64,000 bases of DNA from an uncultured Christensenella sp. (GCA_910586065.1 CAJUGI010000001.1:229616-293615), one strand, 5' to 3'. Positions 6,335-50,825 are shown, numbered from the stretch's first letter. The notes: a model not told the origin generated them from the sequence alone. A program made the numbers and translations.

Positions 6335-6362
6335 TTAACCGATATAATCGGAGTAAACTTTA

Positions 6363-7361
6363 ATGACAAAATATATTATTAAAAGAATACTTTTGTCCGT
6401 TGTAATTTTGTTTTTCGTTTCGCTTATTCTCTATTTTCTTATAAGGTGTATGCCTGTAAGCTATATTGAGAATAAGTTTAACGAAGCGAATGCTAACGGC
6501 GCAAATCTGACTGAAGAGGACTTAAAACGACTCCTCGCCATTTACGGGTTGGAAGACAGCAGTTTCGGCGGCATAATAAAAGGCTACTTCGGCTGGCTCG
6601 GCAACTTTTTAAAGGGCGATATGGGCACGTCGTTCAAGTACGGCAACCCCGTAAACCAGGTAATAAGCGATTCTATGGGAATTTCTTTTGGAATTTCCTT
6701 TGTCGCGCTCATTCTCGAGCTTATCATCGCTATACCCCTCGGCATCAAGTGCGCAACCAACCAGTACGGTAAATTCGACTACACGGTTACCGTGCTGTGT
6801 ATGGCGCTTATGGCGTTTCCGTCGTTCTTCCTCGGCAATATATTTATTAAAATATTTGCCGTTGACTTAGGTTGGTTCGAAATCGGCGGTTTAAATACGG
6901 GGTCGTTGCAGGGCGTTTCGTTTATAGTAAAATTCTTCGATATGTGCTGGCACCTCGTTTTGCCCATTCTCGTAATGGTGCTCCTCGATATAGGACCTAT
7001 GATGCGCTATACAAGGACGAATACTCTCGAAGTTTTAAACGCCGACTACATAAGAACGGCGCGCGCAAAAGGACTTTCCGAGGGCAAAGTGGTCTATAAG
7101 CACGTTTTCAGAAACACGCTTATCCCGCTTATAACGCTCTTGTCGTCAACGCTTCCCATGCTTTTCGGCGGTGCAATGATTACCGAAACGGTTTTCGCTA
7201 TTCCGGGTATAGGACATACGGCGTACGAGGCGCTTAAAGTGGGCGATATTCCGCTTGCAATGGGCTATAATATGTTTATTGCAATATTAACCGTAATCGG
7301 CGTTTTGCTCGCCGATATAATGTACGCGGTTGTAGACCCTAGAGTTAAATTAGGTAAATAG
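6363..7361 (+). CDS. ABC transporter permease (OppB/DppB-like)
   Basis: Multi-TM protein with the binding-protein-dependent transport motif 'YIRTARAKGLSEGKVVYKHVFRNTLIPLIT' and the C-terminal 'VVDPRVK' typical of OppB. Confidence 0.9.
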   Translation: MTKYIIKRILLSVVILFFVSLILYFLIRCMPVSYIENKFNEANANGANLTEEDLKRLLAIYGLEDSSFGGIIKGYFGWLGNFLKGDMGTSFKYGNPVNQVISDSMGISFGISFVALILELIIAIPLGIKCATNQYGKFDYTVTVLCMALMAFPSFFLGNIFIKIFAVDLGWFEIGGLNTGSLQGVSFIVKFFDMCWHLVLPILVMVLLDIGPMMRYTRTNTLEVLNADYIRTARAKGLSEGKVVYKHVFRNTLIPLITLLSSTLPMLFGGAMITETVFAIPGIGHTAYEALKVGDIPLAMGYNMFIAILTVIGVLLADIMYAVVDPRVKLGK

Positions 7362-7369
7362 GTGTTGCT

Positions 7370-8500
7370 ATGGAAGAAAACAAAAAGGCAACAGGCGTTG
7401 AAATAACTCCGGCTGCGGATGAAGCAAACCTCGGTGAAAGCGTTGAAATAACTGTTACCGAAAAGGAAAACTTCAACGATAACCTGCACGGAGAAAATCT
7501 TACCGAAAGAGCAAAAGTGCTTTCGCCCGGAATGACCGTCTTAAAAAGGTTTTTCCGTTCAAAGCTCTCAATTGTCGGGCTTGTAGCTATTATATTATTG
7601 TTTGTATTTTCGTTTTTCGGACCGCTGTTTTCGCCGTGGAGCGCAAACGGCGGCACCGTAAGGGATTATGATACGGTAAATATTTTAGGTACCTATTCCG
7701 CAATCGAATATGTAGGTCCGGACGGCAATACATATATTGCCTACGACGTTACTATAGAAGGCGATTTATTGAATTATAACAGCCTCGGCGGCATTTCCGG
7801 CAATCACTGGCTGGGAACCACGTTGGAAGGCTACGACGTCTTCACAAGACTTATGTACGGCGGAAGGGTTTCTCTTACAATAGGTTTTGTGGTAATTATT
7901 CTCGAAACTTTAATAGGCGTTATTTTAGGCGGACTTGCCGGGTACTTTGGCAAGTGGGTTGACCAGTTGATAATGCGTATAGTGGACATATTAAGCTGTA
8001 TACCGTCGTTGCCGATAATGCTTATACTAAGCGCCGTGTTCGAAGCCGCAAATATTGTAGACATATCAAGGCTGTATTATATGATGGCGATTTTGTGTTT
8101 ACTCGGTTGGACGGGCACTGCCAGACTTGTAAGGGGACAGATTCTGTCGCTTAGAGAGCAGGAATTTATGCTTGCCGCCAAGTGTTCGGGTCTGTCTACG
8201 GGTAAAAAGATATTCAAGCACTTAATCCCCAATGTAATTCCGCAGCTAATCGTTTCGATGACGCTGGGACTCGGCAGTATAATTCTTATGGAAGCGACTT
8301 TGGGCTATTTGGCGATAGGCGCGCCTGCAGATACTGCAACCTGGGGCACTATGATAGAACTTGCTTCAAGGGCAAGATACAGAAATTACTATCCCAATCT
8401 TTGGCTGGGTGCAGGTATATGCATAACGCTTGCCATACTTGCATTCAACTTTGTCGGAGACGGTCTGCGCGACGCATTCGACCCTAAAATGAAGAGGTAA
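7370..8500 (+). CDS. ABC transporter permease (OppC/DppC-like) with N-terminal extension
   Basis: 'GTTLEGYDVFTRLMYGGRVSL' and 'FMLAAKCSGLSTGKKIFKHLIPNVIPQLIV' are OppC-type motifs. The gene starts 8 nt after the previous gene. Confidence 0.9.
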   Translation: MEENKKATGVEITPAADEANLGESVEITVTEKENFNDNLHGENLTERAKVLSPGMTVLKRFFRSKLSIVGLVAIILLFVFSFFGPLFSPWSANGGTVRDYDTVNILGTYSAIEYVGPDGNTYIAYDVTIEGDLLNYNSLGGISGNHWLGTTLEGYDVFTRLMYGGRVSLTIGFVVIILETLIGVILGGLAGYFGKWVDQLIMRIVDILSCIPSLPIMLILSAVFEAANIVDISRLYYMMAILCLLGWTGTARLVRGQILSLREQEFMLAAKCSGLSTGKKIFKHLIPNVIPQLIVSMTLGLGSIILMEATLGYLAIGAPADTATWGTMIELASRARYRNYYPNLWLGAGICITLAILAFNFVGDGLRDAFDPKMKR

Positions 8501-8502
8501 AA

Positions 8503-9810
8503 ATGGCGGACAACAAGACACAGGACAAAAAGAAACATTATATATCGCGTTCCGAATCCAGACAGATTGCCAAAGAAAACTCCAAGGCGATAAAGTTTTA
8601 CGAAAAGCAGAAAAAACGCAAGGTTAAGCCCGAAGATTACACAACCGAAATGAAAGACGATAAAAATATCGTCGAATTCGAGGATTTACACACTTATTTC
8701 TTTTCGGACGCGGGCACAGTTAAGGCGGTGAACGGTGTGTCTTTCTCTGTTCCCGCAGGCTCTACCGTGGGTGTAGTCGGCGAAAGCGGTTGCGGAAAGA
8801 GCGTCACTTCGCTCTCTTTAATGCAACTCGTACAAGCCCCCAGCGGACAGATTGTAAAGGGTTCCATACGCTTTAAGGCGGACCTTTTCAAACGCGATTC
8901 GCGCGGTAAAAAAATTCCCGTTTACGAAACCGAAACGGACGAAAACGGCGAAGAAAAAGTCAAACTCAACGAAAAGGGCAAACCGATAATAAAGAAAAAC
9001 GCGCTCGGCGGCAATATGTACGAAATGGAAAGTCGCGTGGTTGATATCGCAAAGATGCCTACCGAGGCGATGCGTTCAATCCGCGGCAGGGAAATATCCA
9101 TGATATTTCAGGAGCCGATGACCTCTTTGAATCCCGTATTTACGATAGGCAACCAGCTTGACGAAGTAGGCAGACTGCATATTGAGGGCATTTCCAAACA
9201 GCGCGTAAAAGCGCGCAGTATCGAGATGTTAAAGCTCGTAGGAATCGCCGACCCCGAGGGCGTTTACAAAAAGTACCCCCACGAACTTTCAGGCGGTATG
9301 CGCCAGAGAGTTATGATAGCTATTGCTCTTCTGTGCAATCCCAAGCTTATCGTTGCGGACGAACCTACTACCGCGCTCGACGTTACCATTCAGGCGCAGA
9401 TACTCGACTTATTGCGTGAAATAAAAACAAAAATCAACGGCTCTATAATGCTTATTACGCACGATTTGGGCGTCGTTGCCGAAATGGCGGATTTCGTAGT
9501 GGTTATGTATGCCGGAAAGGTAATAGAAATGGGCACCGCGGAAGATATTTTCGACCATCCCATGCATCCTTACACAATCGGCTTGCAAAAGAGCAAACCC
9601 ACGGTAGATTCGCAGGTTGACGAACTCTATTGCATTCCCGGTTTTGTGCCCAATCCCATTAATATGCCCGATTATTGCTATTTCCGCGACAGATGCGAAA
9701 AGTGCCTTGAAAAATGTGCGGGCGAGTATCCCGGACTCATAAAGGTCAGCGATACCCACAGTGTCTCCTGTTACCTCTATGACGGCGCGGAGGTGAAAAA
9801 TAATGGTTAA
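8503..9810 (+). CDS. ABC transporter ATP-binding protein (OppD-like) with N-terminal extension and an internal insertion
   Basis: Walker A GESGCGKS, signature LSGGMRQR, Walker [14 protein letters not shown] ~55-aa Lys/Glu-rich insert ([15 protein letters not shown]...[10 protein letters not shown]) sits between Walker A and the Q-loop. Confidence 0.9.
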
Positions 9811-11392
9811 TGAAGAGATAACCGAAATAAAAACGGCCGAAACCGGCAAAGACGCAAACCCTTCAACCGAAGTTGAAACGTTAACTGCCGAATCTCACGA
9901 CAGCTTTCTCGAAGTTGACGGACTTTGCAAATATTTTACCGTAGATACCGACATTATCGGCAGACCTACAAAATTTTTAAAGGCTGTTGATAACGTTTCA
10001 TTTAAAGTGCAAAAGGGTAAAACTCTCGGCATAGTCGGCGAAAGCGGCTGCGGTAAAACCACGCTCGGCAGAACCATTTTAAGGCTCTACGACGTAACCC
10101 GCGGCGACGTCTGGTTTAAAGGTCAAAAAGTAACCGACCTTAAAAACCGCGAATTTGATAAGCTCCGTCCCAATATGCAGATGATATTTCAGGACCCTTA
10201 CGCAAGTCTGTCTCCCAGAATCACCGTTGGCGAAATCATAGGCGAGGCGGCGCTTCAGCATAAAATCGTTGAAAAAAGCGCATATCACGACTATATCTTA
10301 AGCGTAATGGATATGTGCGGACTTCAGCCTCACTATTTCGAAAGATATCCGCACGAGTTCTCAGGCGGTCAGAGGCAAAGAATTTGTATTGCCCGCGCGC
10401 TCGCGTTAAAGCCCGAGCTCGTCGTCTGCGACGAACCGGTATCCGCGCTCGACGTTTCTATTCAGGCGCAGATAATCAATATGCTTATCGAACTGAGAAA
10501 GACTCTCGGTTTAACCTATCTTTTTATTTCTCACGACTTGTCTGTAGTAAAACATATTTCCGACGAAGTCGGCGTAATGTACCTCGGCACTATGATGGAG
10601 TACGGCAGTAACGACGCCATATTCAATCACACGTTGCATCCGTATACGCGTGCATTGTTTTCTGCGGTTCCCGTGCCTAATCCGCACGTGAAGATGAACA
10701 GAATAATCCTCCGCGGCGACATTCCCTCGCCCGTCAATCCGCCCAAGGGCTGTAAGTTCCATACGCGTTGCGAAAACTGTATGGATATCTGCACCAAGGC
10801 GGCGCCTCCTTTCAAAGAGGTTGAAAAAGGACATTTCTGCGCTTGCCATCTTTACACTACCGAAGAGGAGCAACAGCAACTTTTAATTAAAGCCGAAGAT
10901 GAAGAAAAAAAGCTTGCCGAAGAGGAAGCTAAAAAAATCACATTTAAAAAGGTGTGGGGAACGGTAACCGAAAAGGTAAAGGACGTAATCAAAAAGGACA
11001 AACCCGAAGAGTCAAAAGCTGAAAACTCTTCAAATCAACCTGCCGAAACGGTTTCCGCAAATAAAGAGGACGTAACGTCCGAACAGGTTGCCGAAGTTCC
11101 GGCTCCCGCAGTGGTTCCCGTTGCGGAAATTGCAACCGAAAAACCTGCAGCCAAAGCTCCCGCAAAGGAGCCCGCACCTCAAAAAGTTTCTTCGGATAAA
11201 ACCGAAAAACCCGCAGTAAATAAATCTGCACCGGCAAGAAAGACGTCGGCGTCTGCAAATAAAAAGCCTGCGCAGAATTCTTCGCAAAAGGGTACAAAAG
11301 TGGCAAAAGCGGCGCCTGCAAATAAATCAGGCTCTGCCGGAGCTAAAAAGCCCGCTGCGAAATCCGAGGTAAAAGATGCCGAGGAAAAATAA
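9803..11392 (+). CDS. ABC transporter ATP-binding protein (OppF-like) with ~178-aa disordered Lys/Ala/Pro-rich C-terminal tail
   Basis: GESGCGKTT, FSGGQRQR, LVVCDEPVSALD and the Opp C-terminal motif 'PPKGCKFHTRC...GHFCACHLY'. A low-complexity tail then runs to the stop. The gene overlaps the previous gene by 8 nt. Confidence 0.9.
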   Translation: MVNEEITEIKTAETGKDANPSTEVETLTAESHDSFLEVDGLCKYFTVDTDIIGRPTKFLKAVDNVSFKVQKGKTLGIVGESGCGKTTLGRTILRLYDVTRGDVWFKGQKVTDLKNREFDKLRPNMQMIFQDPYASLSPRITVGEIIGEAALQHKIVEKSAYHDYILSVMDMCGLQPHYFERYPHEFSGGQRQRICIARALALKPELVVCDEPVSALDVSIQAQIINMLIELRKTLGLTYLFISHDLSVVKHISDEVGVMYLGTMMEYGSNDAIFNHTLHPYTRALFSAVPVPNPHVKMNRIILRGDIPSPVNPPKGCKFHTRCENCMDICTKAAPPFKEVEKGHFCACHLYTTEEEQQQLLIKAEDEEKKLAEEEAKKITFKKVWGTVTEKVKDVIKKDKPEESKAENSSNQPAETVSANKEDVTSEQVAEVPAPAVVPVAEIATEKPAAKAPAKEPAPQKVSSDKTEKPAVNKSAPARKTSASANKKPAQNSSQKGTKVAKAAPANKSGSAGAKKPAAKSEVKDAEEK

Positions 11393-11627: not shown

Positions 11628-11640
11628 ATTAACAAAATCG

Positions 11641-11670
11641 GGGGACGAATATTTTCGTTCCCCAGTTCTT
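11641..11670 (+). terminator. Putative intrinsic terminator of the ABC operon
   Basis: Hairpin ggggacgaa-tatt-ttcgttcccc (one bulged base) followed by a weak T-rich stretch. Confidence 0.45.
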
Positions 11671-11691: not shown

Positions 11692-12495
11692 ATGAAGGAA
11701 AAAACCGCAAAAACGGTACGGCTTGTCAGCGGAATTGTGCTCAGCGCAATGACCGTTATTCTCGCCGCGCTGTTTATATGGCAGGTTCTCGATATCCTCG
11801 CCGTCGGCACTTCCGAAGGATATGAAGGTTTCATATTCACAAGGGACGACGTAGCCGCAAGGCTGTTCAGGCTTTTGCCGGCAATCGTCATATGGATAGC
11901 GCTCATTATCGCGGGTTTCGTTTTATGGGAAGTTTTCCCCGTCAAGCCCGCCCGTGCTAAAAACGATAGCAGTTATATTTTAAAACGCTATAAAAAGCGC
12001 ATTCCCGCGGCTGTGCCCGAAGAACTTAAAGGCTCGCTGCAATTCATAAACGGTGAAGAAGAGAACTTAAAAATCATCCGCATTATCGCGGCTGTGATTT
12101 GCGGCGTCGGGGTGCTCTGCGGAGTAATTTATCTTTCCAATCCCTCAAACTTTCCCAAGGATGACGTAACTGCCGAAATGGTAAATATGGTTAAAAACGT
12201 ATTTCCTTGGGCTGCCGCGGCGCTCGTTTTATGGTGCGGCGTAGCAATTTATGAAGAGATTTCTTCAAAAAAGCAGCTCGAACACGCAAAAAAGCTCGCT
12301 GGCAAAATGAAAGTTGAAATTTACCACGGAAAAATCTATGCTTTCTTAAATCACAAATTTTTCCTTTTGGGCGCAAGAATCGTGCTCGGCGTGCTTGCCG
12401 TTGCGTTCATAATCGCCGGCGTTACCGGCAATTCTTTGCACAGCGTTCTTATAAAAGCAATAAATATCTGTACGGAGTGTATCGGTCTTGGCTAA
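11692..12495 (+). CDS. Polytopic membrane protein ending in a CXXC tail (KAINICTECIGLG)
   Basis: AGGAGG ribosome-binding site. There are about five hydrophobic helices. The C-terminal ...ICTECIGLG resembles, from memory, the CD1871A-type CXXC family that sits next to 4Fe-4S genes in clostridia. Its stop overlaps the start of the next gene. Confidence 0.7.
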   Translation: MKEKTAKTVRLVSGIVLSAMTVILAALFIWQVLDILAVGTSEGYEGFIFTRDDVAARLFRLLPAIVIWIALIIAGFVLWEVFPVKPARAKNDSSYILKRYKKRIPAAVPEELKGSLQFINGEEENLKIIRIIAAVICGVGVLCGVIYLSNPSNFPKDDVTAEMVNMVKNVFPWAAAALVLWCGVAIYEEISSKKQLEHAKKLAGKMKVEIYHGKIYAFLNHKFFLLGARIVLGVLAVAFIIAGVTGNSLHSVLIKAINICTECIGLG

Positions 12496-14224
12496 GGTAA
12501 AAAATTTCTTTATAAAAACCGGACAGTGGTTCAAAAATCACGCTCCGTCCAAGCGCCGTATCATTCAGGTATATGCGGCGTTATTGACAAACGCAAACAT
12601 AAAGGGTTTCGTAACCGGCAGAATTTACCGCGGCGGCACAAAAAATCTTTGCACGCCGGGATTGAACTGTTATTCCTGTCCGGGCGCGGTCGGCGCGTGT
12701 CCTTTGGGCGCACTGCAGGATTCCCTTGCAAAATCCGGCACAAGTTTCCCATATTATATATTGGGTATTTTAGGGCTTTTGGGACTTCTGTTCGCAAGAA
12801 CAATTTGCGGTTTCTTCTGTCCGGTAGGTTTGGGGCAAGAACTTCTCCACAAAATCAAAACTCCCAAACTGAAAAAAAGCCGTTTCACCCGCGTGCTTTC
12901 GTACTTAAAATACGTGCTGTTGGCAGTTCTGGTAATAGCAATCCCCATAATTTATCAGGGAATACCGGCATTTTGCAAATACGTTTGTCCCGCAGGCACG
13001 TTCGGCGGCGCGGGAGGACTGCTGATTAATCCGGGCAACGCCGATTTCTTCGATATGCTCGGTTATTTGTTCAGCTGGAAGTTCGTGCTCCTCGTCATAT
13101 TCATCGTTGGCAGTATATTTATTTACAGGTTCTTCTGCCGTTTCTTCTGTCCGCTCGGCGCAATATACGGTTTCTTCAACAAAATCGCTCTTATGGGTGT
13201 GAAATTAGACGAAGAGAAGTGCGTTGACTGCGGCTTATGCATACAGACGTGTCAGATGGACATAAAGCACGTCGGCGACCACGAATGTATCAACTGCGGA
13301 GCGTGCATAAAGGTCTGCCCCACGCAGGCAATAAGCTGGAAAGGCTCGCAAATCTTTTTGCATTCTAATATGGCAACCGCCTCCGCGGCGGCAAACGAAG
13401 CCGAAAAGATAAATCTTCTGGCGGTAAATTCAAATAATCAATCGGCAACAATGTCAACGCCCAAAGCGGTTACAACCCAAACGGCACAAGAAACAGTAAA
13501 GGCCGAAACGGTAATTCATCCCGTAGAGGAAGAGGGCAAAATTCAGCCCACGGCAACCGGCAACGCAATAAAAGCCCCCGCAATGGTAAAAGTTAAGCGT
13601 CCTCCGAAGGGCAGGCGCTACTGGCTTGAATTTGCCGCGTGGATAGCGGCGGCGGTTGTGCTCTTAACGGCGCTCGTGTATTACAACTTTCTGGCTCCTA
13701 CGGCTTCAACGGTGGCTTACGGCGTTGGCGACAAGTGTCCCGACTTCACGCTTACTCTCTACGAAAGCGAGGGCAGCAAAAAGGACGGCGGCTATTACAA
13801 AAAGGTTTCTTCAAACGTAATTGCGGACGACACAATTTGCAGTAAAGATAAAGTAACCGTAATAAATTTCTGGTATACCGACTGTGACCCCTGCAAGGCG
13901 GAACTTCCGTACTTTGCAAAGGTAAAACAGGAATACGGCGACGAAATTTTAATGATAACCGTTCAAACCGACCCTTATGCGGACGTACAGGAATTTATCG
14001 ATACGACGCTTGACCCCACGGATAATGCGACGCATTGGAGGGACTGGGGAATAATCTTTGCCGAAGAAGACCCTTCGCTCGATACCTACGGTATGTTCGG
14101 CGGCAAGTCTGCTTACCCCACGACGGTAATAATCGACGCCGACGGCGTAATAAGTTTCTACCGCGACGGCTCTCTTCCCGAAGCCACCCTGCGCGAGGAA
14201 ATCCAAAAAGCGCTCAAAAAATAA
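12488..14224 (+). CDS. Membrane polyferredoxin (NapH/MauN-like 4Fe-4S protein) fused to a C-terminal TlpA/ResA-type thioredoxin domain
   Basis: The TTG start overlaps the upstream stop. N-terminal motif: 'CTPGLNCYSCPGAVGACPLG'. TM-embedded CP motifs: FFCPVGLGQ, YVCPAGTFG and FFCPLGAIYG. Two ferredoxin motifs: CVDCGLCIQTC and CINCGACIKVCP. These are followed by an Ala/Thr-rich linker, an extra TM helix (WIAAAVVLLTALVYY), and then 'VINFWYTDCDPCKAELP...YPTTVIIDADGVI'. Confidence 0.85.
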   Translation: MAKVKNFFIKTGQWFKNHAPSKRRIIQVYAALLTNANIKGFVTGRIYRGGTKNLCTPGLNCYSCPGAVGACPLGALQDSLAKSGTSFPYYILGILGLLGLLFARTICGFFCPVGLGQELLHKIKTPKLKKSRFTRVLSYLKYVLLAVLVIAIPIIYQGIPAFCKYVCPAGTFGGAGGLLINPGNADFFDMLGYLFSWKFVLLVIFIVGSIFIYRFFCRFFCPLGAIYGFFNKIALMGVKLDEEKCVDCGLCIQTCQMDIKHVGDHECINCGACIKVCPTQAISWKGSQIFLHSNMATASAAANEAEKINLLAVNSNNQSATMSTPKAVTTQTAQETVKAETVIHPVEEEGKIQPTATGNAIKAPAMVKVKRPPKGRRYWLEFAAWIAAAVVLLTALVYYNFLAPTASTVAYGVGDKCPDFTLTLYESEGSKKDGGYYKKVSSNVIADDTICSKDKVTVINFWYTDCDPCKAELPYFAKVKQEYGDEILMITVQTDPYADVQEFIDTTLDPTDNATHWRDWGIIFAEEDPSLDTYGMFGGKSAYPTTVIIDADGVISFYRDGSLPEATLREEIQKALKK

Positions 14225-14234
14225 TTAAGTTTGT

Positions 14235-14272
14235 AAAGGCTCCCTTTAAACTAAAAGGGAGCCTTTGATTTT
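14235..14272 (+). terminator. Intrinsic terminator after the polyferredoxin gene
   Basis: 12-bp stem aaaggctccctt/aagggagccttt with an 8-nt loop, followed by gatttt. Confidence 0.7.
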
Positions 14273-14337: not shown

Positions 14338-16461
14338 TTAGTTAACAGGCGTTACTTTTACGTATAACGATGCTTCTAAAACGTTGTTCGCACAATAGAA
14401 GTACAACAAATCGCCCTTATTTAACGTTACGTTAACGGTAAAGTTATTTGACTGGTTAAATTTCAGTTCCAACGCCGTGGGGCCTTCGCCAACATAAGCA
14501 GTTATTTCCTGACCGTAAATTCCCATGCCGGATGAAATTTCAATAGTGTAAGTGCCGTTATCACCGATAAATTCAACTTCCGTCTCGTTGGCTTCGATAA
14601 GTTTTACTTCCAACTCCTCACCGACTTTCAGCTTGTTGTTATTTTCGTTTTCGGTTTTATTAAGCGTAACGCTATAGGTCTCACCGTATATTGCTTCGTT
14701 CTCGTCGAAATAGAATATTACGTTATATACTTTGCCGGCTTCGACCTTGAATGCCGTGCTGGTTTTATTATAAGATTCAAAAACGTTGTTGCCGTCAACC
14801 GTAATTCGCTCTATTTCTACGGGAACAGCGCCTTCAAATATATACCATCCGTCTTCCTGAACCGTAAATGAGAAGTAAAGGTCTTCGCCTTCATATGTCA
14901 GATTAGCCGTTCCGGGATTAATCTGAGTGTTGCTTTCGGCGTAATATACACAGGGAAGTAACCAGTTGTTTTCTTTGTTGCTTACCGAAGCTCCCGCAAA
15001 TCTGTCTGCAAACGTCTGAAGGAATTTATAAAGGTCTTCATTCAAACCGTAAACGCCGTCTGCGTTAACAAAGAACGTATAAAAGTTTATCAGTCCTTTA
15101 TAATCGTAAACTTTATTGTTTTCTTCGTCGGATATTAAAGCGTTGGTCCAGGTATTAATCGCGTCGCCTATTCTGTCGCCTACAACGTCGGTTTTAGTGA
15201 GCATAACCGCAATAATTTTGCCGTCTTTGCTGTTCATATGATAATATCCGTCGTCTCCCAGAACAGCCTTAACCGAGCCGTCTACAGGCACAGCCGTAAG
15301 ATTTTTCTCCTTTGCGAATTCCGGGGGGTTCATAGTCGAAGGCTGAACTATTTCCGTATCAATTTCCCCGCGCGATGTTGCTTCGCCTGTTCTTTCAACG
15401 GTTATACTAACCGTGCAGTCCGTTGCGGAAGTAACGTAAAAATAATAGCTTGCCGCAGATTTTGTTAAATCCAAATCGAGTTCGATATAATCGGTTCCTG
15501 TATATTTATCGTCCGAGCCGTTACCGGTAATCGCCAAAATCTGAGTAGGACGTCCGTTTTTGTCTACGGGAGTATAGCCGGGGCTTGCATAAAAATGTCT
15601 CAAAACAGGCGTGGCGGAAGCGGTGGTGGTGGAAATGGTAAGCTTATACTTGCCTGTCGCCGCAAGAGTGGACATATTTGTAATTGCAACGCTTATCGCG
15701 CTCGCCTCGTCCGGCGTATAGGGAAGCCCGGTATCGGGGTTAATATCGGTTGTTCCAACGGTTCTGGGGTTTTTAAAAGTCGAAAAATCGAAATAGCTAA
15801 TCTCTCCCGCCTTAACGTTAAGCTGCAAAACTTTATCCGCGCTCTCTTTAAACGCCGCTTCGGGGTTATCCAGCGAATTCTGTCCGTTGTATGCAAATTC
15901 ACGGTAATAGGGGTGTAATGGTCTTTCCGAATAATAAAAGTGTTCGGGTACGTAGTCGAACTCAACCTTGGCGCTCTTTTCACCGTCAAAACCGAAATAG
16001 GTTATGGGCAGATGCGTAACTTCGTCGTTTACCGTGTGCAGAATGTAGTTGTAAGGAACAGCTCTGTCGTTTGCCGTTTCACCGCTCTGCGCCACTTTAA
16101 CAAAGTATTCTGCGCCGGCAACTGGTTTAAACTCGCCGAAAGGAATGGGAGTATTTGATGTGGCAACAAATTTTACCACGCCGTTTGCGTCGGTTTTTGC
16201 TCTCGTCAGCGTTTCCTGAACTATATAAGTTTGCCCTACGTCTTCAGGGTCAACGTTTTCTCCGCCTTCAACTGTTTTGGTTACATTGTAAAATAATTCA
16301 ATCCAAACGTTTGCAATAGGCGTTTTGGCGTCGGTAGTGTCGGTTACTGTTACTGTATAAGTTTCGCCGTCGTTTCCGCCGCAGGCTGTAAGCCCCAGCG
16401 CAAACGCAACCACGCAAACAACACTCAAAAGCGTAATCAGCAGCTTTTTGCATTTAGTCAT
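14338..16461 (-). CDS. Large lipoprotein, unknown function, with an N-terminal transthyretin/carboxypeptidase-regulatory-like beta domain
   Basis: Lipobox GLTACGG. I prefer the second ATG (MTKCKK...) because GGAGAA lies 5 nt upstream of it; the ORF track starts 12 nt earlier, at 16473. The 'FADRFAG...NNWLLPCVYY' segment resembles the C-terminus of the 957-aa neighbour. Confidence 0.75.
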   Translation of the reverse strand: MTKCKKLLITLLSVVCVVAFALGLTACGGNDGETYTVTVTDTTDAKTPIANVWIELFYNVTKTVEGGENVDPEDVGQTYIVQETLTRAKTDANGVVKFVATSNTPIPFGEFKPVAGAEYFVKVAQSGETANDRAVPYNYILHTVNDEVTHLPITYFGFDGEKSAKVEFDYVPEHFYYSERPLHPYYREFAYNGQNSLDNPEAAFKESADKVLQLNVKAGEISYFDFSTFKNPRTVGTTDINPDTGLPYTPDEASAISVAITNMSTLAATGKYKLTISTTTASATPVLRHFYASPGYTPVDKNGRPTQILAITGNGSDDKYTGTDYIELDLDLTKSAASYYFYVTSATDCTVSITVERTGEATSRGEIDTEIVQPSTMNPPEFAKEKNLTAVPVDGSVKAVLGDDGYYHMNSKDGKIIAVMLTKTDVVGDRIGDAINTWTNALISDEENNKVYDYKGLINFYTFFVNADGVYGLNEDLYKFLQTFADRFAGASVSNKENNWLLPCVYYAESNTQINPGTANLTYEGEDLYFSFTVQEDGWYIFEGAVPVEIERITVDGNNVFESYNKTSTAFKVEAGKVYNVIFYFDENEAIYGETYSVTLNKTENENNNKLKVGEELEVKLIEANETEVEFIGDNGTYTIEISSGMGIYGQEITAYVGEGPTALELKFNQSNNFTVNVTLNKGDLLYFYCANNVLEASLYVKVTPVN

Positions 16462-16545
16462 AATTTTCTCCATACTATTATTATTTTTTGTAAAAGCGCG
16501 GAAAAGTTTTCACACTATCCCGCGCTTTTTTTAAGTTTTATCGGG

Positions 16546-16938
16546 TTAATTTGTTTTTGTAAGGGTGTAATTCACTGTCCCGAACCCTGTTGCATACTGC
16601 TCGGCACCGTAAGAATAACCTGCGGGCACCTTGTTGAGCTGAACGTGGAACGACTGTCCGCCTTCAAGTGCGGGTAAATCTACGTTGCAGGTTGCTTCTC
16701 CGTTTGCGTCAAGTTTAACGGGAGTACCGTAGCATTGAATCGTTTCCTGCTTATCGGCCGATACAAGACACCACTGAACGGTAATCTGCGTATAATCGAA
16801 ACCTTCTTCCGCACAGACAACCTTAACGGAATACGCCGTTGCGCCGTCTCCGCCGCACGCGGGCATAAACGCGCAGGTCAGCGTTGCGGCAACGGCAACA
16901 AGCAAACCTATTACCAAAAGTTTTAAGTTCTTTTTCAT
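16546..16938 (-). CDS. Small lipoprotein (130 aa) consisting of one transthyretin-like beta domain
   Basis: Lipobox FMPACGG. 'YSVKVV...LDANGEATCNVDLPALEGGQSFHVQLNKVPAGYSY' parallels the N-terminal domains of both neighbouring lipoproteins. Confidence 0.7.
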   Translation of the reverse strand: MKKNLKLLVIGLLVAVAATLTCAFMPACGGDGATAYSVKVVCAEEGFDYTQITVQWCLVSADKQETIQCYGTPVKLDANGEATCNVDLPALEGGQSFHVQLNKVPAGYSYGAEQYATGFGTVNYTLTKTN

Positions 16939-16962: not shown

Positions 16963-19836
16963 TTAAATGTTGTAATATTCGTAATAGCACGCAAACATCT
17001 TCCATGCGCCGGTATTAAGTCCGTCGCCTGCAAAATTGCTGTTAAAGTTCTGAATGAAGTTTGCAAGCATATTTACAAGTTCGGACGAAGCTTCAAGCAG
17101 TCCGTAATCGGGGTCGCTCTTACGTTTTCCCTGTTTGGACTTTGAAAGGAACTCTTTCATTTTCGACGTGTTATTACCAAAATAATTGTTGTTTATCAAC
17201 CATTCAAGCGAGTGGTTTTGATTGTCAAAGTAGTTGCCGTGTACAAAGTCGATATATATTTTCGAACCGTAGGAGTTGTTGTCGTTGTAATAATATATAC
17301 CGTCCTGACCAAGAACCGTGGGTACTGCAAGATAATATATAAAGCCGTCAAGGGTATAAGTCCACATACCTTCCGCAGTCGAGCAAACCTTAATCATATT
17401 AATTGAAGTTTGAGGTAAACGCTCGATTTTTACGTTAAAATTACCTTGGTCGTTAGGAACTGCGGTGTCGCATTGCAAAAAGTACGTTCCGGCTTCCAGT
17501 ACCTGATATTTAAAGATGTTCGAATTTTCGTAAGAATTCCGTGTAAACTTGTCGTAACGCAAATCAGTGGTTTCATCAAAAATTATTTCACCGACGCTGT
17601 TATTATTTTCGTAATAAAGAGCAAGTCTGGGGTCCGTGTTGTTATTGTTAATAGTAGTGGTAAAGTGATAAATACCTTTTGCCGGCAAAGTAATTTTATA
17701 CCAGAGTCCGCCGCCGTAATCGGTCATCATTATTTTGGTTTTGTTTACCGTAAACTGATACGAGTTTCCGGGAATGTTAATCGCAAAAGCGTTTTCCGCA
17801 ATAAGCCCTTTTACAGGGTCTTTATAACTGAAGCAGTTGTCTTTGTCGGCTTCGGCGCTTGCCTGCGTATCGTGTCTGAATCCGTAATGGCGGTAGAAGT
17901 AGCACATTTCAAGCCACTGGTCCTCATAGTAACCGTACTTAGCCTTGTCGCCGTCGTTTTTATGCTCTTCGGCGTAAGCTTTCGTAAACTCTATAATTGC
18001 GTTTTTCAGATTTTCCGTTAAAGGCGTAAGCTGATTATCCGAAAATTCCTGAAGATAATAATTCCTGATAATCGTATCCGTCATTTTCTGGTCGCCGTAA
18101 GTAAATTTGAGTCCGCCGTCTTTATCGGCCGTCTCACGGTTTGACATATACCAGTAAGATATGCGGTAAAGCGAAGAGGGCTGGGTGGAAACTCCGCTTA
18201 TAGGAATAAACGTATCCGCGCCGAAGTGTTTTTCCGTCCAGGGTGAAGCCTGGTTGATATTCGCAAGCAACAAATACTTTTCGCCGTTATCGTCCGAATA
18301 GTAATAATATCCGTCTTCCTGGTTTATCGTAAGTCTATCCGATATTCCGTAAGAACCGTTCGAAAGCGTTTCGCCGTCTATTACCGAAACGCGCTGGTCT
18401 ATAGCCGTTTCGCTCTTTGTTACGTCGGTAATCGTAATGTTTCTTATCGAAGCCGTGTCGGTGCCGTCGTCTTTAAGAGGGTCCTTAATGTATATAAACG
18501 AAAGGGTGAGGTTAACCGTATGGTCCGCAACGTAAACTCCGTAATTCTGCACCCAGCCGTTATTACTGCCTGCGGTGCCGGTCGAATTTCCGCTGTGTTC
18601 GCCGACTATCTGTCCGTTAATAAGCGCAAACAGAATGTCGTTACCCGCCTCGGTGTCCACTTTGTATTCATAAGAAAGCGCGTCGCCGCTCTGAAGCGTC
18701 AGGTCAATATAAACGGTGGCGTAGGAATAAGGCTTTTTACTGTTGGATGCGGTCATATACCCGCCACCCTCGCCTATTATCCAGGGCCAGGTATAAGGAA
18801 CGTCTTTTTCGTTCGTTTCGGGGCTGAAATCGCCTATTTTACCATCTGTGCCCTCGCCGAGAACGTTTGCTTTGAACACCGAAGACGCGGGCATTTCAAC
18901 ACTTCCGTCAAACTTCGTGCGTTCTGTGGGCGTTTCGTTATTATCAGAATCAGAAGGGTCGTCCTGCGTGTAATCGTCGGAAGCATATTTATTGAAAAGC
19001 GCTTTCCAAGCCGATTCCTGAGGTATGCTCGAAACGTGCACTTCCGCAATTACGCCGTATCTGTCAATAACGACGGTGGTGGGGAACGCGGTTACGCCGA
19101 ACGCGCCGGTTATTCCCGCATTGTCGCGCGCGCAGTGGAAAGTAAGTCCCCAGTCGCTTTGGAATTTCGCTATTTCGTCTGCGCTGTCAGTCGAGTCAAG
19201 CGCAACTACGCTCACGGTATCCGCATAAGCCTTATAAGCTCTTTCAAGCGCGGGGAACTCCGTTTTGCACGCCGAGCATTCGGTGTACCAGAAGTTAAGA
19301 ACAACCGCTCTTTTCGTCTTAAAAAGTTCCTCAAGCGTCAACTGAATGCCGTAACTGTTCGTAAAGCTGAAATTGTGCATTATATCGCCTACGGAATATC
19401 TCGTACCCGAAGTCATCGTCTGCGAAATTACTTTCGAAGAAATAACAACTTCCGCGTTTTCCTTGTCGGCGGTGGTGGTAAAGGAAGTGCCTGCGGGCAC
19501 ATAGTAACCCGCGGGGAGTTTTTCCTCGTCTACAACCAATTCGTATTCGCCTGCCGGTAAACCGAATTCGATTTTACCCTCGTTCGAGGAAATACCGGTT
19601 GCAATTTCGTTTCCGCCCTTTTTAGCAGTAACGGTAATGTTCGAAAGCGCCAGACCTCCGATTGATTTAACAGAAATTACATATTTGCCTCTGTATTCGC
19701 TTCCTTCGTCCGTCGTACCGGGGTTTCTGAAGTTGGGCGACATATTCTTGCCGCCGCAAGCGGCAACCGCAAACGCTACGCACACCGTAAGGCACGCAAG
19801 TAACACGGTTATCAATATTTTTCTTAATTTACTCAT
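16963..19836 (-). CDS. Lipoprotein with a beta-sandwich domain, a TlpA/ResA-type thioredoxin domain and a ~650-aa C-terminal region of unknown function
   Basis: Lipobox AVAACGG. 'GKIEFGLPAGEYELVVDEEKLPAGYYVP', then 'VVLNFWYTECSACKTEFP...FPTTVVIDRYGVI'. The protein ends 'GAWKMFACYYEYYNI'. Confidence 0.8.
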   Translation of the reverse strand: MSKLRKILITVLLACLTVCVAFAVAACGGKNMSPNFRNPGTTDEGSEYRGKYVISVKSIGGLALSNITVTAKKGGNEIATGISSNEGKIEFGLPAGEYELVVDEEKLPAGYYVPAGTSFTTTADKENAEVVISSKVISQTMTSGTRYSVGDIMHNFSFTNSYGIQLTLEELFKTKRAVVLNFWYTECSACKTEFPALERAYKAYADTVSVVALDSTDSADEIAKFQSDWGLTFHCARDNAGITGAFGVTAFPTTVVIDRYGVIAEVHVSSIPQESAWKALFNKYASDDYTQDDPSDSDNNETPTERTKFDGSVEMPASSVFKANVLGEGTDGKIGDFSPETNEKDVPYTWPWIIGEGGGYMTASNSKKPYSYATVYIDLTLQSGDALSYEYKVDTEAGNDILFALINGQIVGEHSGNSTGTAGSNNGWVQNYGVYVADHTVNLTLSFIYIKDPLKDDGTDTASIRNITITDVTKSETAIDQRVSVIDGETLSNGSYGISDRLTINQEDGYYYYSDDNGEKYLLLANINQASPWTEKHFGADTFIPISGVSTQPSSLYRISYWYMSNRETADKDGGLKFTYGDQKMTDTIIRNYYLQEFSDNQLTPLTENLKNAIIEFTKAYAEEHKNDGDKAKYGYYEDQWLEMCYFYRHYGFRHDTQASAEADKDNCFSYKDPVKGLIAENAFAINIPGNSYQFTVNKTKIMMTDYGGGLWYKITLPAKGIYHFTTTINNNNTDPRLALYYENNNSVGEIIFDETTDLRYDKFTRNSYENSNIFKYQVLEAGTYFLQCDTAVPNDQGNFNVKIERLPQTSINMIKVCSTAEGMWTYTLDGFIYYLAVPTVLGQDGIYYYNDNNSYGSKIYIDFVHGNYFDNQNHSLEWLINNNYFGNNTSKMKEFLSKSKQGKRKSDPDYGLLEASSELVNMLANFIQNFNSNFAGDGLNTGAWKMFACYYEYYNI

Positions 19837-45596: not shown

Positions 45597-46259
45597 ATGG
45601 AATTCTCTTACGCACACAAAAACACAAGCTGCGGCGAGCGTCAGACAGCAACCGCGCAGTTCAACGTTCCGCGGTTAAGCGCGCAAGTTCAGGAACTTCG
45701 CCTTGCGGCTTTCGAACGGGAAATTCCCGTATCCGACGATGAAACGCTGTGCCTTCTTAAAACTCTGCTTACCGCAAAGCAGCCGCAAAATATCCTTGAA
45801 CTCGGCACCGCCGTGGGAATATCCGCCGCAGTTATGCTTTCAGTATGCCCTAACGCTAAGGTTACCACAATCGAGCGCGACGAAAATTTTTATAGCGAAG
45901 CGTTAAAAAACTTTAAAAGTCTCGGCATATCCCAAAGTGTAACGGCAATCGCGGGCGACGCCGGTGAAGAAATCCAAAAGCTTGACGATAAGTTCGACTT
46001 CATTTTTCTCGACTGCGCTAAGGTGCAGTACGTAAAATATCTTCCGTGTCTGAAACAGCTCTTAACAAAAGGCGGCATTCTAGTTGCGGACGATATTCTG
46101 TTGTTCGGCTACGTCACGGGCGAAAAGGAAGTTCCCAAAAAGCGAAAAATGCTTGTCGAGCACGTAAAGGAATATATAACCGCCGTAACAACGGATAACG
46201 AACTTCAAACCACAATTTTGAACGTCGGCAACGGCGTTGCGTTATCGGTAAAATTATGA
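45597..46259 (+). CDS. Class I SAM-dependent O-methyltransferase (YrrM/TrmR-like)
   Basis: 'ILELGTAVGISA', 'DFIFLDCAK' and 'GGILVADDILLFG'. It is followed by a U32 peptidase gene, as in the B. subtilis yrrM-yrrN-yrrO locus. No obvious ribosome-binding site precedes ATG 45597. Confidence 0.8.
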   Translation: MEFSYAHKNTSCGERQTATAQFNVPRLSAQVQELRLAAFEREIPVSDDETLCLLKTLLTAKQPQNILELGTAVGISAAVMLSVCPNAKVTTIERDENFYSEALKNFKSLGISQSVTAIAGDAGEEIQKLDDKFDFIFLDCAKVQYVKYLPCLKQLLTKGGILVADDILLFGYVTGEKEVPKKRKMLVEHVKEYITAVTTDNELQTTILNVGNGVALSVKL

Positions 46260-46387
46260 AAGCGCCTTACCTGCGCAAAATACGTAATCCGCGCCGAAGT
46301 CACGGATACGGACGGAAACGCGTTGCAAAAGCTTTATGTTAAAATTGACGGTTTTCCGCAATCAAAAGAAATATTGGATAAATTGTT

Positions 46388-47581: not shown

Positions 47582-47604
47582 ATTCGAATATTCGGGAGAA
47601 GAAA

Positions 47605-49343: not shown

Positions 49344-49469
49344 ATATAGATTTTTATGGACAAATCAGACCTTTTTATGTAATTTTCAGACATCGGGCTT
49401 TTTAAAAAACGTCATTAAAACGTATTTAATTTTGAAAAAACGTAAAAAACCATTAAAAACGGCAGAGGT

Positions 49470-50780: not shown

Positions 50781-50796
50781 AAATAAGTGACGTAAA

Positions 50797-50825
50797 GCCG
50801 CCCGCGCAGGTGTTGCGCGGGCGGC
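50797..50825. terminator. Bidirectional terminator hairpin, copy 1 of 3 identical copies
   Basis: gccgcccgcgc-aggtgtt-gcgcgggcggc. It serves dinB (+) and the first HTH gene (-). Identical copies lie at 51621 and 52421. Confidence 0.8.

Follow-up and report, generated by a model that had tools for sequence, protein, structure and literature searches.

To our knowledge, every characterised supply of reducing power to extracytoplasmic thioredoxin-like proteins belongs to the DsbD/CcdA superfamily and is fed by cytoplasmic thioredoxin. The roles of these thioredoxin-like proteins are the maturation of cytochrome c, synthesis of the spore cortex, repair of methionine sulfoxide and isomerisation of disulfides. 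The only well-established chemistry known to us in which [4Fe-4S] clusters reduce a disulfide that in turn reduces thioredoxin is that of the FTR/HdrB type. VKOR-Trx fusions place a membrane redox module, a TM helix and an external Trx-like domain in one polypeptide. In Streptococcus pneumoniae, the surface-anchored ResA/TlpA-like thioredoxins Etrx1 and Etrx2 are fed across the membrane by CcdA1 and CcdA2 (PMC3914529). For NapH-like modules that feed an extracytosolic FMN-binding domain, a role as trans-membrane electron conduits has been put forward before, so the general idea of a NapH-like module serving an extracytosolic redox domain is not new (PMC8238504). In NosR, PceC and other NapH-like proteins, too, a redox domain outside the cytosol is coupled to the membrane core (PMC8238504, PMC5928378), and it is still debated whether the CX3CP motifs act as disulfides or Fe-S sites (PMC5928378).

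The window analyzed here is one strand of 64,000 nt from an uncultured Christensenella sp. (GCA_910586065.1 CAJUGI010000001.1:229616-293615). A sequence-only reading of it had proposed that a single fusion protein passes electrons from cytoplasmic Fe-S clusters through a membrane domain with CP motifs to an external thioredoxin; it knew of no characterised example, and none was found in the literature search. The fusion gene and the gene directly upstream (Table 1) are read here, with a probability of roughly 0.6, as the fused form of a recurrent three-component system that would supply an external thiol reductase with electrons from Fe-S clusters in the cytoplasm. The conserved fusion and its CxxC partner probably export reducing power without CcdA/DsbD in gut Clostridia.

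Table 1. Features of the redox locus and its surroundings (positions in the window, residues in the respective protein).
Feature	Position	Strand	Basis or remark
Terminator-like hairpin, end of upstream Opp-type operon	11640..11663	+	10-bp GC-rich stem, then T-rich tail
Partner gene, 267-aa membrane protein	11692..12495	+	Five predicted TM helices; N-terminus inside, C-terminal tail outside (hydropathy, charge bias)
Partner C-terminal tail KAINICTECIGLG, CD1871A CxxC motif, predicted extracytoplasmic	12454..12492	+	Conservation
Fusion gene, 578 aa: NapH-like module, two [4Fe-4S] motifs, linker, TM helix, ResA/TlpA-like Trx	12488..14224	+	ORF listing, HMMs, conservation
K/R-rich cytoplasmic N-terminus (residues 1-24) and first helix (25-44)	12488..12619	+	Charge, hydropathy, AF2
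N-terminal Cys motif C55-x5-C61-x2-C64P-x6-C71P, first outer loop	12650..12703	+	NapH alignment, conservation
CX3CP no. 1 (C107/C111P)	12806..12823	+	Cytoplasmic end of helix 87-109; aligns with NapH CSWVCP
CX3CP no. 2 (C163/C167P)	12974..12991	+	Second outer loop; aligns with cysteine-free NapH WEWINP, periplasmic loop
CX3CP no. 3 (C217/C221P)	13136..13153	+	Cytoplasmic end of helix 199-217; aligns with NapH CGHICP
Two ferredoxin-type [4Fe-4S] motifs, cytoplasmic	13220..13321	+	Pfam Fer4, Fer4_7, Fer4_9; NapH alignment
Low-complexity acidic linker (residues 296-364), variable length, cytoplasmic	13373..13579	+	Conservation, charge, pLDDT
Fifth TM helix (379-399), preceded by KVKRPPKGRR	13622..13684	+	Hydropathy 2.1; AF2 helix 376-402
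ResA/TlpA-like Trx domain, predicted extracytoplasmic	13724..14221	+	Pfam Redoxin and AhpC-TSA family matches; pLDDT 83-94
Terminator-like hairpin 3' of fusion gene	14234..14267	+	14-bp stem
711-aa lipoprotein	14338..16473	-	Travels with 957-aa protein; syntenic in relatives
130-aa lipoprotein	16546..16938	-	Travels with 957-aa protein; syntenic in relatives
Convergent 957-aa lipoprotein with second ResA-like extracytoplasmic Trx (C187-S-A-C190)	16963..19836	-	Pfam AhpC-TSA, 59.8 bits

The three parts described for the 578-aa ORF are all borne out by the ORF listing and by HMM searches. The ORF begins with a TTG that falls within the final codons of the gene before it (CTTGGCTAA), which gives an overlap of 8 nt; the identical overlap occurs in 8 of 13 related loci checked, and the rest have an ATG a few bases 3' of the stop. 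Pfam matches were obtained to Fer4_5 (45.4 bits, cut-off 22; two stretches, best at 199-233), Fer4 (36.6 bits, cut-off 21.1), Redoxin (47.5 bits, cut-off 26.6) and AhpC-TSA (47.6 bits, cut-off 26). Two CxxCxxCxxxC(P) motifs are present at residues 245-255 and 267-277, and the Ala/Thr/Pro-rich linker, the extra TM helix (hydrophobic stretch 379-397), the WYTDCDPC site and the YPTT cis-Pro motif were likewise found as described. At least 600 genome matches to the fusion were obtained; the best 80 loci all come from species-representative genomes, mostly of gut and rumen Clostridia, and their fusion ORFs range from 464 to 838 aa. Some family members have two Trx domains. Full-length matches fall into at least 120 protein clusters with 50-99% identity, and all 20 functional cysteines (18 in the membrane and Fe-S parts plus the CxPC pair) are kept in 120 of 120 sequences; therefore, the fusion is not a frameshift artefact.

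The membrane module is homologous to NapH. An hhalign comparison of the family profile with E. coli NapH gave a probability of 98.2% (E 3.8e-14) over residues 72-282. The sequence-only reading had listed an N-terminal motif and three CP motifs embedded in TM helices. All of these motifs are present, but they are not equivalent membrane-embedded sites: those at 107-112 and 217-222 match the two canonical NapH motifs at helix ends, whereas the N-terminal motif and the one at 163-168 correspond to periplasmic loop positions of NapH. CX3CP no. 2 is restricted to this subfamily (120 of 120 fusions, 91-97% of standalone relatives), and the ten cysteines of the membrane module are retained in 88-100% of the standalone relatives. 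The N-terminal motif, kept in 120 of 120 sequences, directly precedes PLGALQDSLA, which hhalign places on PLMTLQSLAS of the first periplasmic loop of E. coli NapH. The first helix (predicted by AF2 at 22-43) is highly conserved (RRxIQxYxALLxNANxKG), yet its mean hydropathy of 0.76 makes it weakly hydrophobic, so it is NapH homology and charge bias that place the N-terminal motif on the outer face. Residues 1-24 have a family mean net charge of +7.4 and the loop after CX3CP no. 1 (loop C) has +5.9, while the two outer loops have family-wide values of +1.7 (the first, over 42 residues) and +0.5. All eight ligands of the [4Fe-4S] motifs (C245, C248, C251 and C255; C267, C270, C273 and C277P) are invariant, and the linker that follows has no conservation, a net charge of -7.7 and a pLDDT of 28-30. 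With a pLDDT of 40-60, the AF2 model is unreliable for the membrane and Fe-S parts and gives no geometry for the cysteine sites.

The Trx domain has its active site, WYTDC466DPC469, at 13883-13894 and its cis-Pro motif, YPTT (543-546), at 14114-14125; C466, P468, C469 and P544 are invariant. The best Foldseek matches are DsbE (3gl3), ResA (4nmu/1su9) and Etrx2 (2yp6), with a TMt of about 0.8, and DipZ-C (2hyx) also matches at lower coverage. The cut-offs of the ResA subfamily model NF002854 (46 vs 170) and the DsbE model TIGR00385 (31 vs 123) are not reached by the fusion. In this family the active site often reads CGPC; this and the fold of reductant-type proteins (ResA, DsbE, Etrx) were counted in favor of a reducing character. 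Topology was derived from charge bias and from homology to E. coli NapH. Averaged over 120 homologues, the net charge is +4.6 for the 14 residues before the last helix, -2.3 after it and -11.3 for the Trx domain, and a K/R-rich, NapH-like inner face precedes the Fe-S domain. These values support the earlier claim that the extra helix puts the Trx domain opposite the Fe-S clusters. The clusters are thus predicted to lie inside and the Trx domain outside; the middle CX3CP, like the N-terminal Cys motif, would face outward. In the split and unfused forms the Trx protein bears its own signal anchor or lipobox.

A third component had been overlooked. The sequence-only reading was right about the parts of the fusion, but the proposed route would also involve an obligatory third part, a CD1871A-type CxxC protein encoded just upstream. 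This partner matches NCBIfam NF040920 (CD1871A family) at residues 231-267 with 33.5 bits against a cut-off of 32; the score is marginal because the model spans only the last 37 residues. The 575 homologues of the partner are all full length, C260 and C263 are kept in 121 of 121 sequences, and the tail is invariant or nearly so. Small versions of CD1871A (45-66 aa) consist of KRR, a TM helix and the tail, and score 62-65 bits on the same model. In 73 of 77 species loci, the ORF immediately before the fusion is of the CD1871A type. The upstream hairpin closes the Opp-type operon and makes the redox pair a separate unit; this two-gene unit is flanked by the two hairpins of Table 1.

The three parts are genetically linked in three different arrangements. 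A frameshift, or genes that are separate everywhere else, had been raised as a doubt about the fusion. The 77 species loci comprise 71 fused forms and 6 in which the NapH-like part and a TM-anchored Trx are encoded by overlapping genes. Unfused relatives (40-47% identity) have an operon in the order exported TlpA-like Trx, 45-66-aa CD1871A, NapH-like protein. The small CD1871A gene is present in 70 of 70 unfused loci and the Trx gene in 61 of 70, and seven of the nine loci lacking it end at a contig edge; these loci are not phylogenetically independent, many being near-identical human-gut contigs. Retention of the Trx partner in the fused, split and operon forms is as expected for a core component. 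The unfused triad is also annotated in RefSeq for the cultured Peptoclostridium acidaminophilum, where the CD1871A gene immediately precedes the gene for a membrane "4Fe-4S binding protein", so the hypothesis is directly testable.

The recurrent neighbors of the fusion in related loci include further Trx lipoproteins. In the window, the convergent 957-aa lipoprotein is a candidate downstream partner or substrate of the fusion Trx. Its C187 and C190 are invariant in 40 homologues, its Trx domain (AF2 pLDDT 86.7) matches ResA in Foldseek with a TMt of 0.9 and also DipZ-C, and the protein occurs in four of the five lineages examined and at about 35 of 71 species loci. Searches of Pfam, NCBIfam and PDB gave no match for the 711-aa and 130-aa lipoproteins beside it. 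Four cysteines are present in the mature 130-aa lipoprotein and six in a 447-aa exported protein.

The earlier statement that the window encodes no CcdA/DsbD agrees with a Pfam scan, which found no PF02683 match among the unannotated ORFs with at least two predicted TM helices, to which the scan was largely confined; two Opp permease ORFs with 5-7 TM helices were judged through their syntenic counterparts, which carry BPD_transp_1. A loose motif screen of about 1.49 Mb of related flanks found no CcdA/DsbD, and neither the fusion nor the partner matches PF02683.

For the preferred reading, we infer the direction of electron flow, the donor, the outer-face chemistry and the substrates as follows. 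Reduced ferredoxin or another low-potential cytoplasmic donor would load the two cytoplasmic [4Fe-4S] clusters, from which electrons would pass the canonical CX3CP pair at the inner face and go on to eight outer-face cysteines (C55, C61, C64, C71, C163 and C167 plus C260 and C263 of the partner). There, one-electron carriers might generate a reduced dithiol, either by FTR-like chemistry or through a DsbD-like thiol relay. The dithiol would reduce the CxPC of the fused Trx, and the Trx in turn external substrates, with the 957-aa Trx lipoprotein as the leading candidate. The architecture behind the route proposed earlier stands and its topology is supported, but its three CP motifs would not form one relay. 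Since Fe-S clusters transfer one electron at a time and disulfide reduction takes two, the conversion step is hypothetical and was counted against the mechanism. Outer metal clusters would need to be acquired outside the cell by a Sec-inserted protein, which was also counted against it.

Electron flow could run the other way. The external Trx would then take electrons from exported cysteines, forming disulfides, and the NapH-like module would lead these electrons inward to the Fe-S clusters and an acceptor in the cytoplasm; such a complex would be a quinone-free counterpart of DsbB or VKOR-Trx for strict anaerobes. Exported proteins of the window, the 130-aa and 447-aa proteins among them, do bear cysteines, VKOR-Trx fusions share the layout, and the fold does not fix the direction: SdbA (5um7), described as an oxidase, is among the fold matches of the Trx domain of the 957-aa lipoprotein. 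This reading is nevertheless unlikely, because CGPC, CDPC and CTPC sites on a ResA/TlpA fold typically mark a reductant, the analogues with the same Trx subfamily (DipZ and DsbD) are reductive, and ferredoxin-type [4Fe-4S] clusters, whose potential is usually low, are ill suited to accept electrons from a disulfide-forming Trx.

The polyferredoxin may also have a different main job, such as metal reduction or electron export, with the Trx domain and the CD1871A tail keeping its outer cysteines reduced or aiding assembly. A precedent is the cupric reductase CcoG (PMC7558416), itself a related polyferredoxin that has an additional TM helix and a domain in the periplasm; a weak Fer4_18 match (18.1 bits, cut-off 27) and the six invariant cysteines in loops predicted to lie outside fit the same idea. 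It is made improbable by the conserved neighborhood, in which no copper or metal-handling genes were seen and more Trx lipoproteins recur, by the persistence of the Trx through all three arrangements and by the members with two Trx domains. Least probable of all is a quinol dehydrogenase in which electrons come from menaquinol and the Fe-S clusters have a regulatory or assembly role. Menaquinol, at about -74 mV, would be unable to reduce a Trx-type disulfide without energy input, and the hosts are uncultured gut Clostridia, which commonly lack quinones as far as known. The fusion is homologous to NapH and shares PLxxLQ in the outer loop with it, but it misses the NapH models by far (TIGR02163, 71.6 vs 213.05; NF007013, 48.4 vs 234; residues 196-285 only), and both Fe-S motifs are invariant in all members. 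NapH has been described as oxidising menaquinol and passing the electrons to a periplasmic partner (PMC3475470).

Export of reducing power by the triad may, more tentatively, amount to a third, Fe-S-based route to envelope thiol-disulfide oxidoreductases that replaces CcdA in many gut Clostridia; it would rank after the DsbD/CcdA superfamily and alongside the flavinylated systems. This bolder and rather doubtful version assumes a membrane-spanning, cysteine-ligated chain with FTR-like chemistry outside. Its centers would be the two [4Fe-4S] clusters, a site at the inner CX3CP pair and one or two sites from the eight outer cysteines, two of which would come from the CD1871A peptide. The chain would feed the large Trx lipoproteins, whose targets would be external disulfides, possibly those of peptides from the host or the diet that the neighboring Opp system imports. 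If true, envelope thiol chemistry would be tied straight to the low-potential ferredoxin pool of anaerobes, and the CD1871A peptides and a large subfamily known only as "4Fe-4S binding protein" would gain a function. There would also be a handle on the role of the CX3CP cysteines in NapH, NosR and RdhC proteins. Hundreds of uncultured gut and rumen Clostridia carry the system, which may bear on oxidative-stress tolerance, sporulation or disulfide-rich substrates.

Among known systems, NapH, MauN, NosR and PceC (RdhC), membrane proteins with Pfam Fer4_5, share with the fusion a homologous 4-TM core in which two helices end in a CX3CP motif on the cytoplasmic side. In NapH, both CX3CP motifs and both C-terminal [4Fe-4S] motifs align with those of the fusion in the same order. 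NapH and NosR share the two C-terminal cytoplasmic [4Fe-4S] motifs with the fusion, while PceC is without them. The fusion differs from NapH, NosR and PceC in that its outer domain is a C-terminal Trx past an extra TM helix rather than an N-terminal FMN-binding domain or a docked NapG, in the six extra invariant cysteines of its two outer loops, and in its obligatory CD1871A-type CxxC partner. NapH/MauN proper was rejected as an assignment, as the family cut-offs are not reached and no napA, napG or mau genes occur in the window or related loci. A flavinylated system of the NosR/PceC type was likewise rejected: the fusion has no FMN_bind match and scores 28.4 on the NosR model (cut-off 1000), no FMN_bind or ApbE neighbor is present among the called genes, and no nap, nos or rdh genes lie near the fusion.

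In CcoG/FixG/RdxA, a related family of membrane polyferredoxins, the chain also runs on through an additional TM helix into a C-terminal domain outside the cytoplasm (PMC7558416), but in CcoG this domain is Ig-like, and the activity known for CcoG, Cu(II) reduction, is attributed to the cytoplasmic side. Membership in this family was rejected, with Fer4_18 under its cut-off and no FixG_C match in the fusion. VKOR-Trx and DsbB have a similar layout, but they have an unrelated fold, depend on quinone and work in the oxidising direction. The FTR/HdrB-type enzymes are soluble and have no detected sequence similarity to the triad, so the resemblance is mechanistic and hypothetical. DsbD, CcdA, ScsB and DipZ do the same job as is proposed here, bringing cytoplasmic reducing power to extracytoplasmic TlpA/ResA-like Trx proteins, and DipZ and DsbD are also membrane transporters fused to an external Trx-fold domain, with DipZ-C among the structural matches. 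They have no sequence relationship to the fusion, and their input is cytoplasmic thioredoxin through two membrane cysteines, whereas here it would be Fe-S clusters. Etrx and the Bacillus proteins ResA and StoA, all surface-anchored thioredoxins of Firmicutes, are structurally matched by both Trx domains of the locus; their supplier is CcdA, whereas the Trx domains described here are linked to a NapH-like polyferredoxin and a CD1871A protein.

All of the features that the sequence-only reading had listed for the fusion are present in its 578-aa translation (Table), and the domain make-up it proposed is borne out by Pfam, since Fer4_5, Fer4 and Redoxin/AhpC-TSA all score above their cut-offs. 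The NCBIfam models for NapH, NosR, ResA and DsbE give only partial matches, far below their cut-offs. A peroxiredoxin reading of the AhpC-TSA match was considered and rejected because the site is CxPC and the fold is ResA-like. The TTG start falls within the final codons of the upstream partner gene. The same start/stop overlap is found in 8 of the 13 related loci checked; in others an ATG follows the stop by a few bases. Terminator-like hairpins at 11640-11663 and 14234-14267 flank the two-gene unit of partner and fusion.

A search of 5.8 billion proteins gave at least 120 clusters with 50-99% identity and full query coverage, and both Fer4_5 and Redoxin are present in all of these full-length clusters. 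The 18 membrane/Fe-S cysteines and both CxPC cysteines are 100% conserved in an alignment of 120 sequences. A frameshift origin of the fusion was rejected, since homologues are as a rule conserved over their full length. The library of 50%-identity representatives contains about 45 distinct clusters with the fusion; the active-site dipeptide differs among them (CGPC, CDPC, CTPC, CSGC) and a few have two thioredoxin domains. A tandem thioredoxin pair after the NapH-like module is seen in the protein relatives P0144, P0149 and P0168 and in the related locus L072 (9689-12139), where both domains carry a WGTWCPGC motif.

The scan of species-representative genomes gave at least 600 matches, and the best 80 loci were analysed. 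These 80 are mostly from gut or rumen Clostridia MAGs, with Christensenellaceae, Borkfalkiaceae, Oscillospiraceae, Lachnospiraceae, Mogibacterium and others among them. An intact NapH-like ORF is present at 77 loci. The two parts are fused at 71 of them, which rules out the possibility, raised by the sequence-only reading, that orthologues are always two genes. They appear split into two overlapping genes in the other 6, where the second product begins just upstream of the thioredoxin membrane anchor. The split forms lend Rosetta-stone-type support to a putative functional link between the NapH-like part and the thioredoxin.

The third component, which the earlier reading missed, is the partner gene upstream of the fusion. 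Its product has five predicted transmembrane helices with the N-terminus inside and ends in KAINICTECIGLG, so this C-terminal tail is predicted to be outside. Over its final 37 residues the product matches NCBIfam NF040920, "CD1871A family CXXC motif-containing protein", and the tail and both its cysteines are invariant in 121 homologues. An ORF with the CD1871A tail motif lies directly 5' of the fusion in 73/77 species loci and varies in length from 46 to 357 aa. The short versions consist of a K/R-rich N-terminus, one transmembrane helix and the tail; therefore, their CxxC is also predicted to be outside, as in the partner.

The same parts are found unfused. Standalone NapH-like relatives are 283-347 aa long with 40-47% identity to the fusion, and the ten membrane-module cysteines are kept in 88-100% of them. 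In both informative look-ups the operon is the same: a gene for an exported Redoxin/thioredoxin protein comes first, then a 46-60-aa ORF, and last a NapH-like gene which overlaps the small ORF by 8 nt. Metagenome contigs were then scanned with a profile of the standalone members and the loci were read by a custom ORF and HMM script. A CD1871A-type ORF is directly upstream in all 70 loci with an intact NapH-like ORF, and a thioredoxin-domain gene lies just before it on the same strand in 61 of the 70, although many of these are closely related human-gut contigs and are not independent. Seven of the nine loci without the thioredoxin gene are interrupted by a contig end. On NF040920 the small ORFs reach 62-65 bits; the thioredoxin proteins are ResA/TlpA-like. 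In many unfused operons the thioredoxin partner is 375-425 aa long with about 230 N-terminal residues without assignment, and the one at locus L104 (3671-4819) has a weak match to the NCBIfam "ResA-like WAxxUGC" (selenocysteine) model.

RefSeq annotation places all three genes of the triad (thioredoxin, CD1871A-type protein and NapH-like protein) in the cultured Peptoclostridium acidaminophilum DSM 3953. This unfused triad (L175; NZ_CP007453.1, 781399-784479) is on an 809-kb replicon, and its genes are named TlpA disulfide reductase family protein, CD1871A family CXXC motif-containing protein and 4Fe-4S binding protein. The TlpA-family gene is separated from the CD1871A gene by an MFS transporter gene. 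The three parts occur fused, split and in a differently ordered operon, so that their linkage holds across three different arrangements of the genes.

The topology of the fusion was considered using charge bias, calculated as the mean net charge per segment over 120 homologues (Table), and homology to NapH. An hhalign comparison of the family profile with E. coli NapH gives a probability of 98.2% (E 3.8e-14) and aligns residues 72-282 with NapH 68-275. C107x3C111P and C217x3C221P align with the two canonical NapH CX3CP motifs, while PLGALQDSLA and C163x3C167P fall opposite sequences in the NapH periplasmic loops, respectively PLMTLQSLAS (first loop) and WEWINP (second loop), which lacks cysteines. 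Brondijk et al. reportedly found in 2004 that NapH has four transmembrane helices and that its two termini, like its Fe-S clusters, are cytoplasmic. This agrees with the topology of PceC, which has been checked by experiment (PMC5928378).

In the predicted model, the N-terminus of the fusion is inside and is followed by a weak, highly conserved helix (25-44), after which C55, C61, C64 and C71 would be located in an outer loop. Helix 87-109 is predicted to lead to a CX3CP at the inner face, then to an inner loop and helix 137-157, which would place C163 and C167 in an outer loop. Helix 199-217 is predicted to lead to another CX3CP at the inner face, with the two [4Fe-4S] motifs and the linker inside, and helix 379-399 to cross the membrane, leaving the thioredoxin domain outside. 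The predicted placement of the thioredoxin outside and the Fe-S clusters inside, already proposed in the sequence-only reading, is well supported by the charge bias and NapH homology. Homology and charge also suggest an outer-face location for the six extra cysteines. Just N-terminal of the last helix, KGRRYWLEF (residues 373-381, window 13604-13630) resembles a twin-arginine motif. Since the family consensus is K-R-x-F-W-L, this is probably a mere positive-inside anchor; Tat-dependent export of the helix, prompted by GRRYW, was set aside on the basis of that consensus and of the thioredoxin being cofactor-free.

The AF2 model of the fusion, built with 49 homologues as input, is confident in the thioredoxin domain alone, with a pLDDT of 83-94 there and 40-60 in the membrane and Fe-S parts. 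The modelled thioredoxin resembles DsbE, ResA and Etrx2 at TMt of about 0.8 and DipZ-C at lower coverage. A PDB sequence search yielded no solved structure of a NapH-like membrane module.

Table. Genes around the fusion (window positions) and segments within it (residues, with mean net charge)
Feature	Position	Strand	Remarks
Opp-type ABC operon	3629-11392	+	Unusually large 901-aa lipoprotein binding protein; second ATPase
Small membrane protein ORF, 83 aa	11376-11627	+	Overlaps end of ATPase gene
Partner	11692-12495	+	267 aa
Fusion	12488-14224	+	578 aa; TTG start
711-aa lipoprotein	14338-16473	-	Accompanies thioredoxin lipoprotein in related loci
130-aa lipoprotein	16546-16938	-	Accompanies thioredoxin lipoprotein in related loci; mature form with four cysteines
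957-aa lipoprotein	16963-19836	-	Ig-like domain, ResA-like thioredoxin domain, about 650 residues mostly beta
Fusion, N-terminal Cys motif	C55-x5-C61-x2-C64P-x6-C71P
Fusion, three CX3CP motifs	C107/C111, C163/C167, C217/C221
Fusion, two CxxCxxCxxxC(P) motifs	245-255 and 267-277
Fusion, hydrophobic helix	379-397		Follows low-complexity linker; span elsewhere 379-399
Fusion, thioredoxin fold	WYTDC466DPC469; YPTT 543-546		Active site; YPTT. Net charge of domain -11.3
Fusion, N-terminus	1-24		Net charge +7.4
Fusion, loop	45-86		Net charge +1.7
Fusion, loop	110-136		Net charge +5.9
Fusion, loop	158-198		Net charge +0.5
Fusion, segment past helix 199-217			Net charge +2.9
Fusion, 14 residues preceding helix 379-399			Net charge +4.6
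Fusion, stretch following helix 379-399			Net charge -2.3

From comparative sequence analysis, the best-supported reading, with a probability of roughly 0.6, is that electrons would flow from a low-potential cytoplasmic donor to external targets. The donor, probably a ferredoxin, would reduce the two [4Fe-4S] clusters, and the inner CX3CP pair would carry electrons across the NapH-like module to eight outer cysteines, six of the fusion and two of the CD1871A tail. A dithiol arising at these cysteines would reduce the fused thioredoxin, which would pass the electrons on to its targets. The cysteine sites could be redox-active disulfides forming a DsbD-like relay, or they could instead ligate further metal clusters, with ferredoxin:thioredoxin-reductase-like chemistry as the last step. 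A cluster at the outer face would pose an assembly problem without a known solution. Even for NosR, NapH and RdhC, no function of the CX3CP motifs has been established (PMC5928378).

Other readings of the same complex seem improbable. It is unlikely that it runs in the oxidising direction, and somewhat less likely that the thioredoxin domain is a maintenance device of a polyferredoxin which has another job. An electron input from quinol, rather than from the Fe-S clusters, is more doubtful still.

Three lipoprotein genes are convergent with the fusion, and the product of one of them, 957 aa long, contains a second ResA-like thioredoxin domain. Its C187 and C190 are kept without exception in 40 homologues, and its relatives are named "TlpA family protein disulfide reductase" at NCBI. 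The AF2 model of this protein (pLDDT 86.7) matches ResA at TMt 0.9; beyond the thioredoxin domain, the best structural match is the thioredoxin and beta-sandwich C-terminal part of M. tuberculosis DipZ. Near the fusion, about 35 of 71 species loci and 4 of the 5 lineages looked up have a large thioredoxin lipoprotein of this kind together with one to three related lipoproteins. Among candidate downstream partners or substrates of the fusion, it ranks first. The 711-aa and 130-aa lipoproteins have no Pfam, NCBIfam or PDB sequence match. On the other side, synteny between the Opp-type operon and the redox pair extends to several lineages, and related ABC ATPase genes are present in 17/71 species loci. 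Its second ATPase (9803-11392) ends in an Ala/Pro/Lys-rich tail of about 170 aa. The 83-aa ORF matches no family; ORFs of 82-88 aa occupy the equivalent position at four related loci (L001, L003, L005, L006).

The earlier statement that the window lacks CcdA and DsbD holds among the unannotated multi-TM ORFs, none of which encodes a DsbD/CcdA-family protein. None was found in 1.49 Mb of related flanks by a motif screen, which is not an HMM search and which divergent members could escape. Three of the weak CcdA candidates from this screen were checked with Pfam and are not of the DsbD family. No Rfam family reaches its gathering score across the whole 64 kb (tRNAs without a dedicated tool); therefore, the window shows no sign of a riboswitch, a leader or any other described RNA family. 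The GC skew stays around zero or a little below it to about 46 kb and is +0.08 to +0.20 from 48 kb to the window end (+0.13 to +0.20 up to 62 kb). This shift in 46000-64000 has no corresponding change in coding strand.

No functional literature was found on CD1871A, CD1871, PF12801 or polyferredoxins with TlpA or CcdA; the "CD1871" matches concern C. difficile, either a conjugative-transposon region or an ABC permease. The literature search found no paper on the fusion, the triad or the CD1871A family. The triad is an uncharacterised three-part system made up of known superfamilies, and it would carry considerable conceptual weight should the proposed mechanism be borne out.

The membrane module is a member of the NapH/Fer4_5 superfamily, but fails the family tests for NapH, NosR and CcoG. 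The thioredoxin domain is a Redoxin-family member without being an equivalog of either ResA or DsbE. DsbD, CcdA and DipZ are closest to the triad in function, but have no sequence relation to it. NapH-like proteins have been proposed as trans-membrane electron conduits to flavinylated domains, with thioredoxin-like carriers treated as a separate, DsbD-fed class (Meheust et al. 2021, PMC8238504). The closest architectures are those of CcoG, a polyferredoxin with an extra transmembrane helix and a periplasmic domain (PMC7558416), and NosR/PceC, in which a NapH-like core is combined with an external FMN domain.
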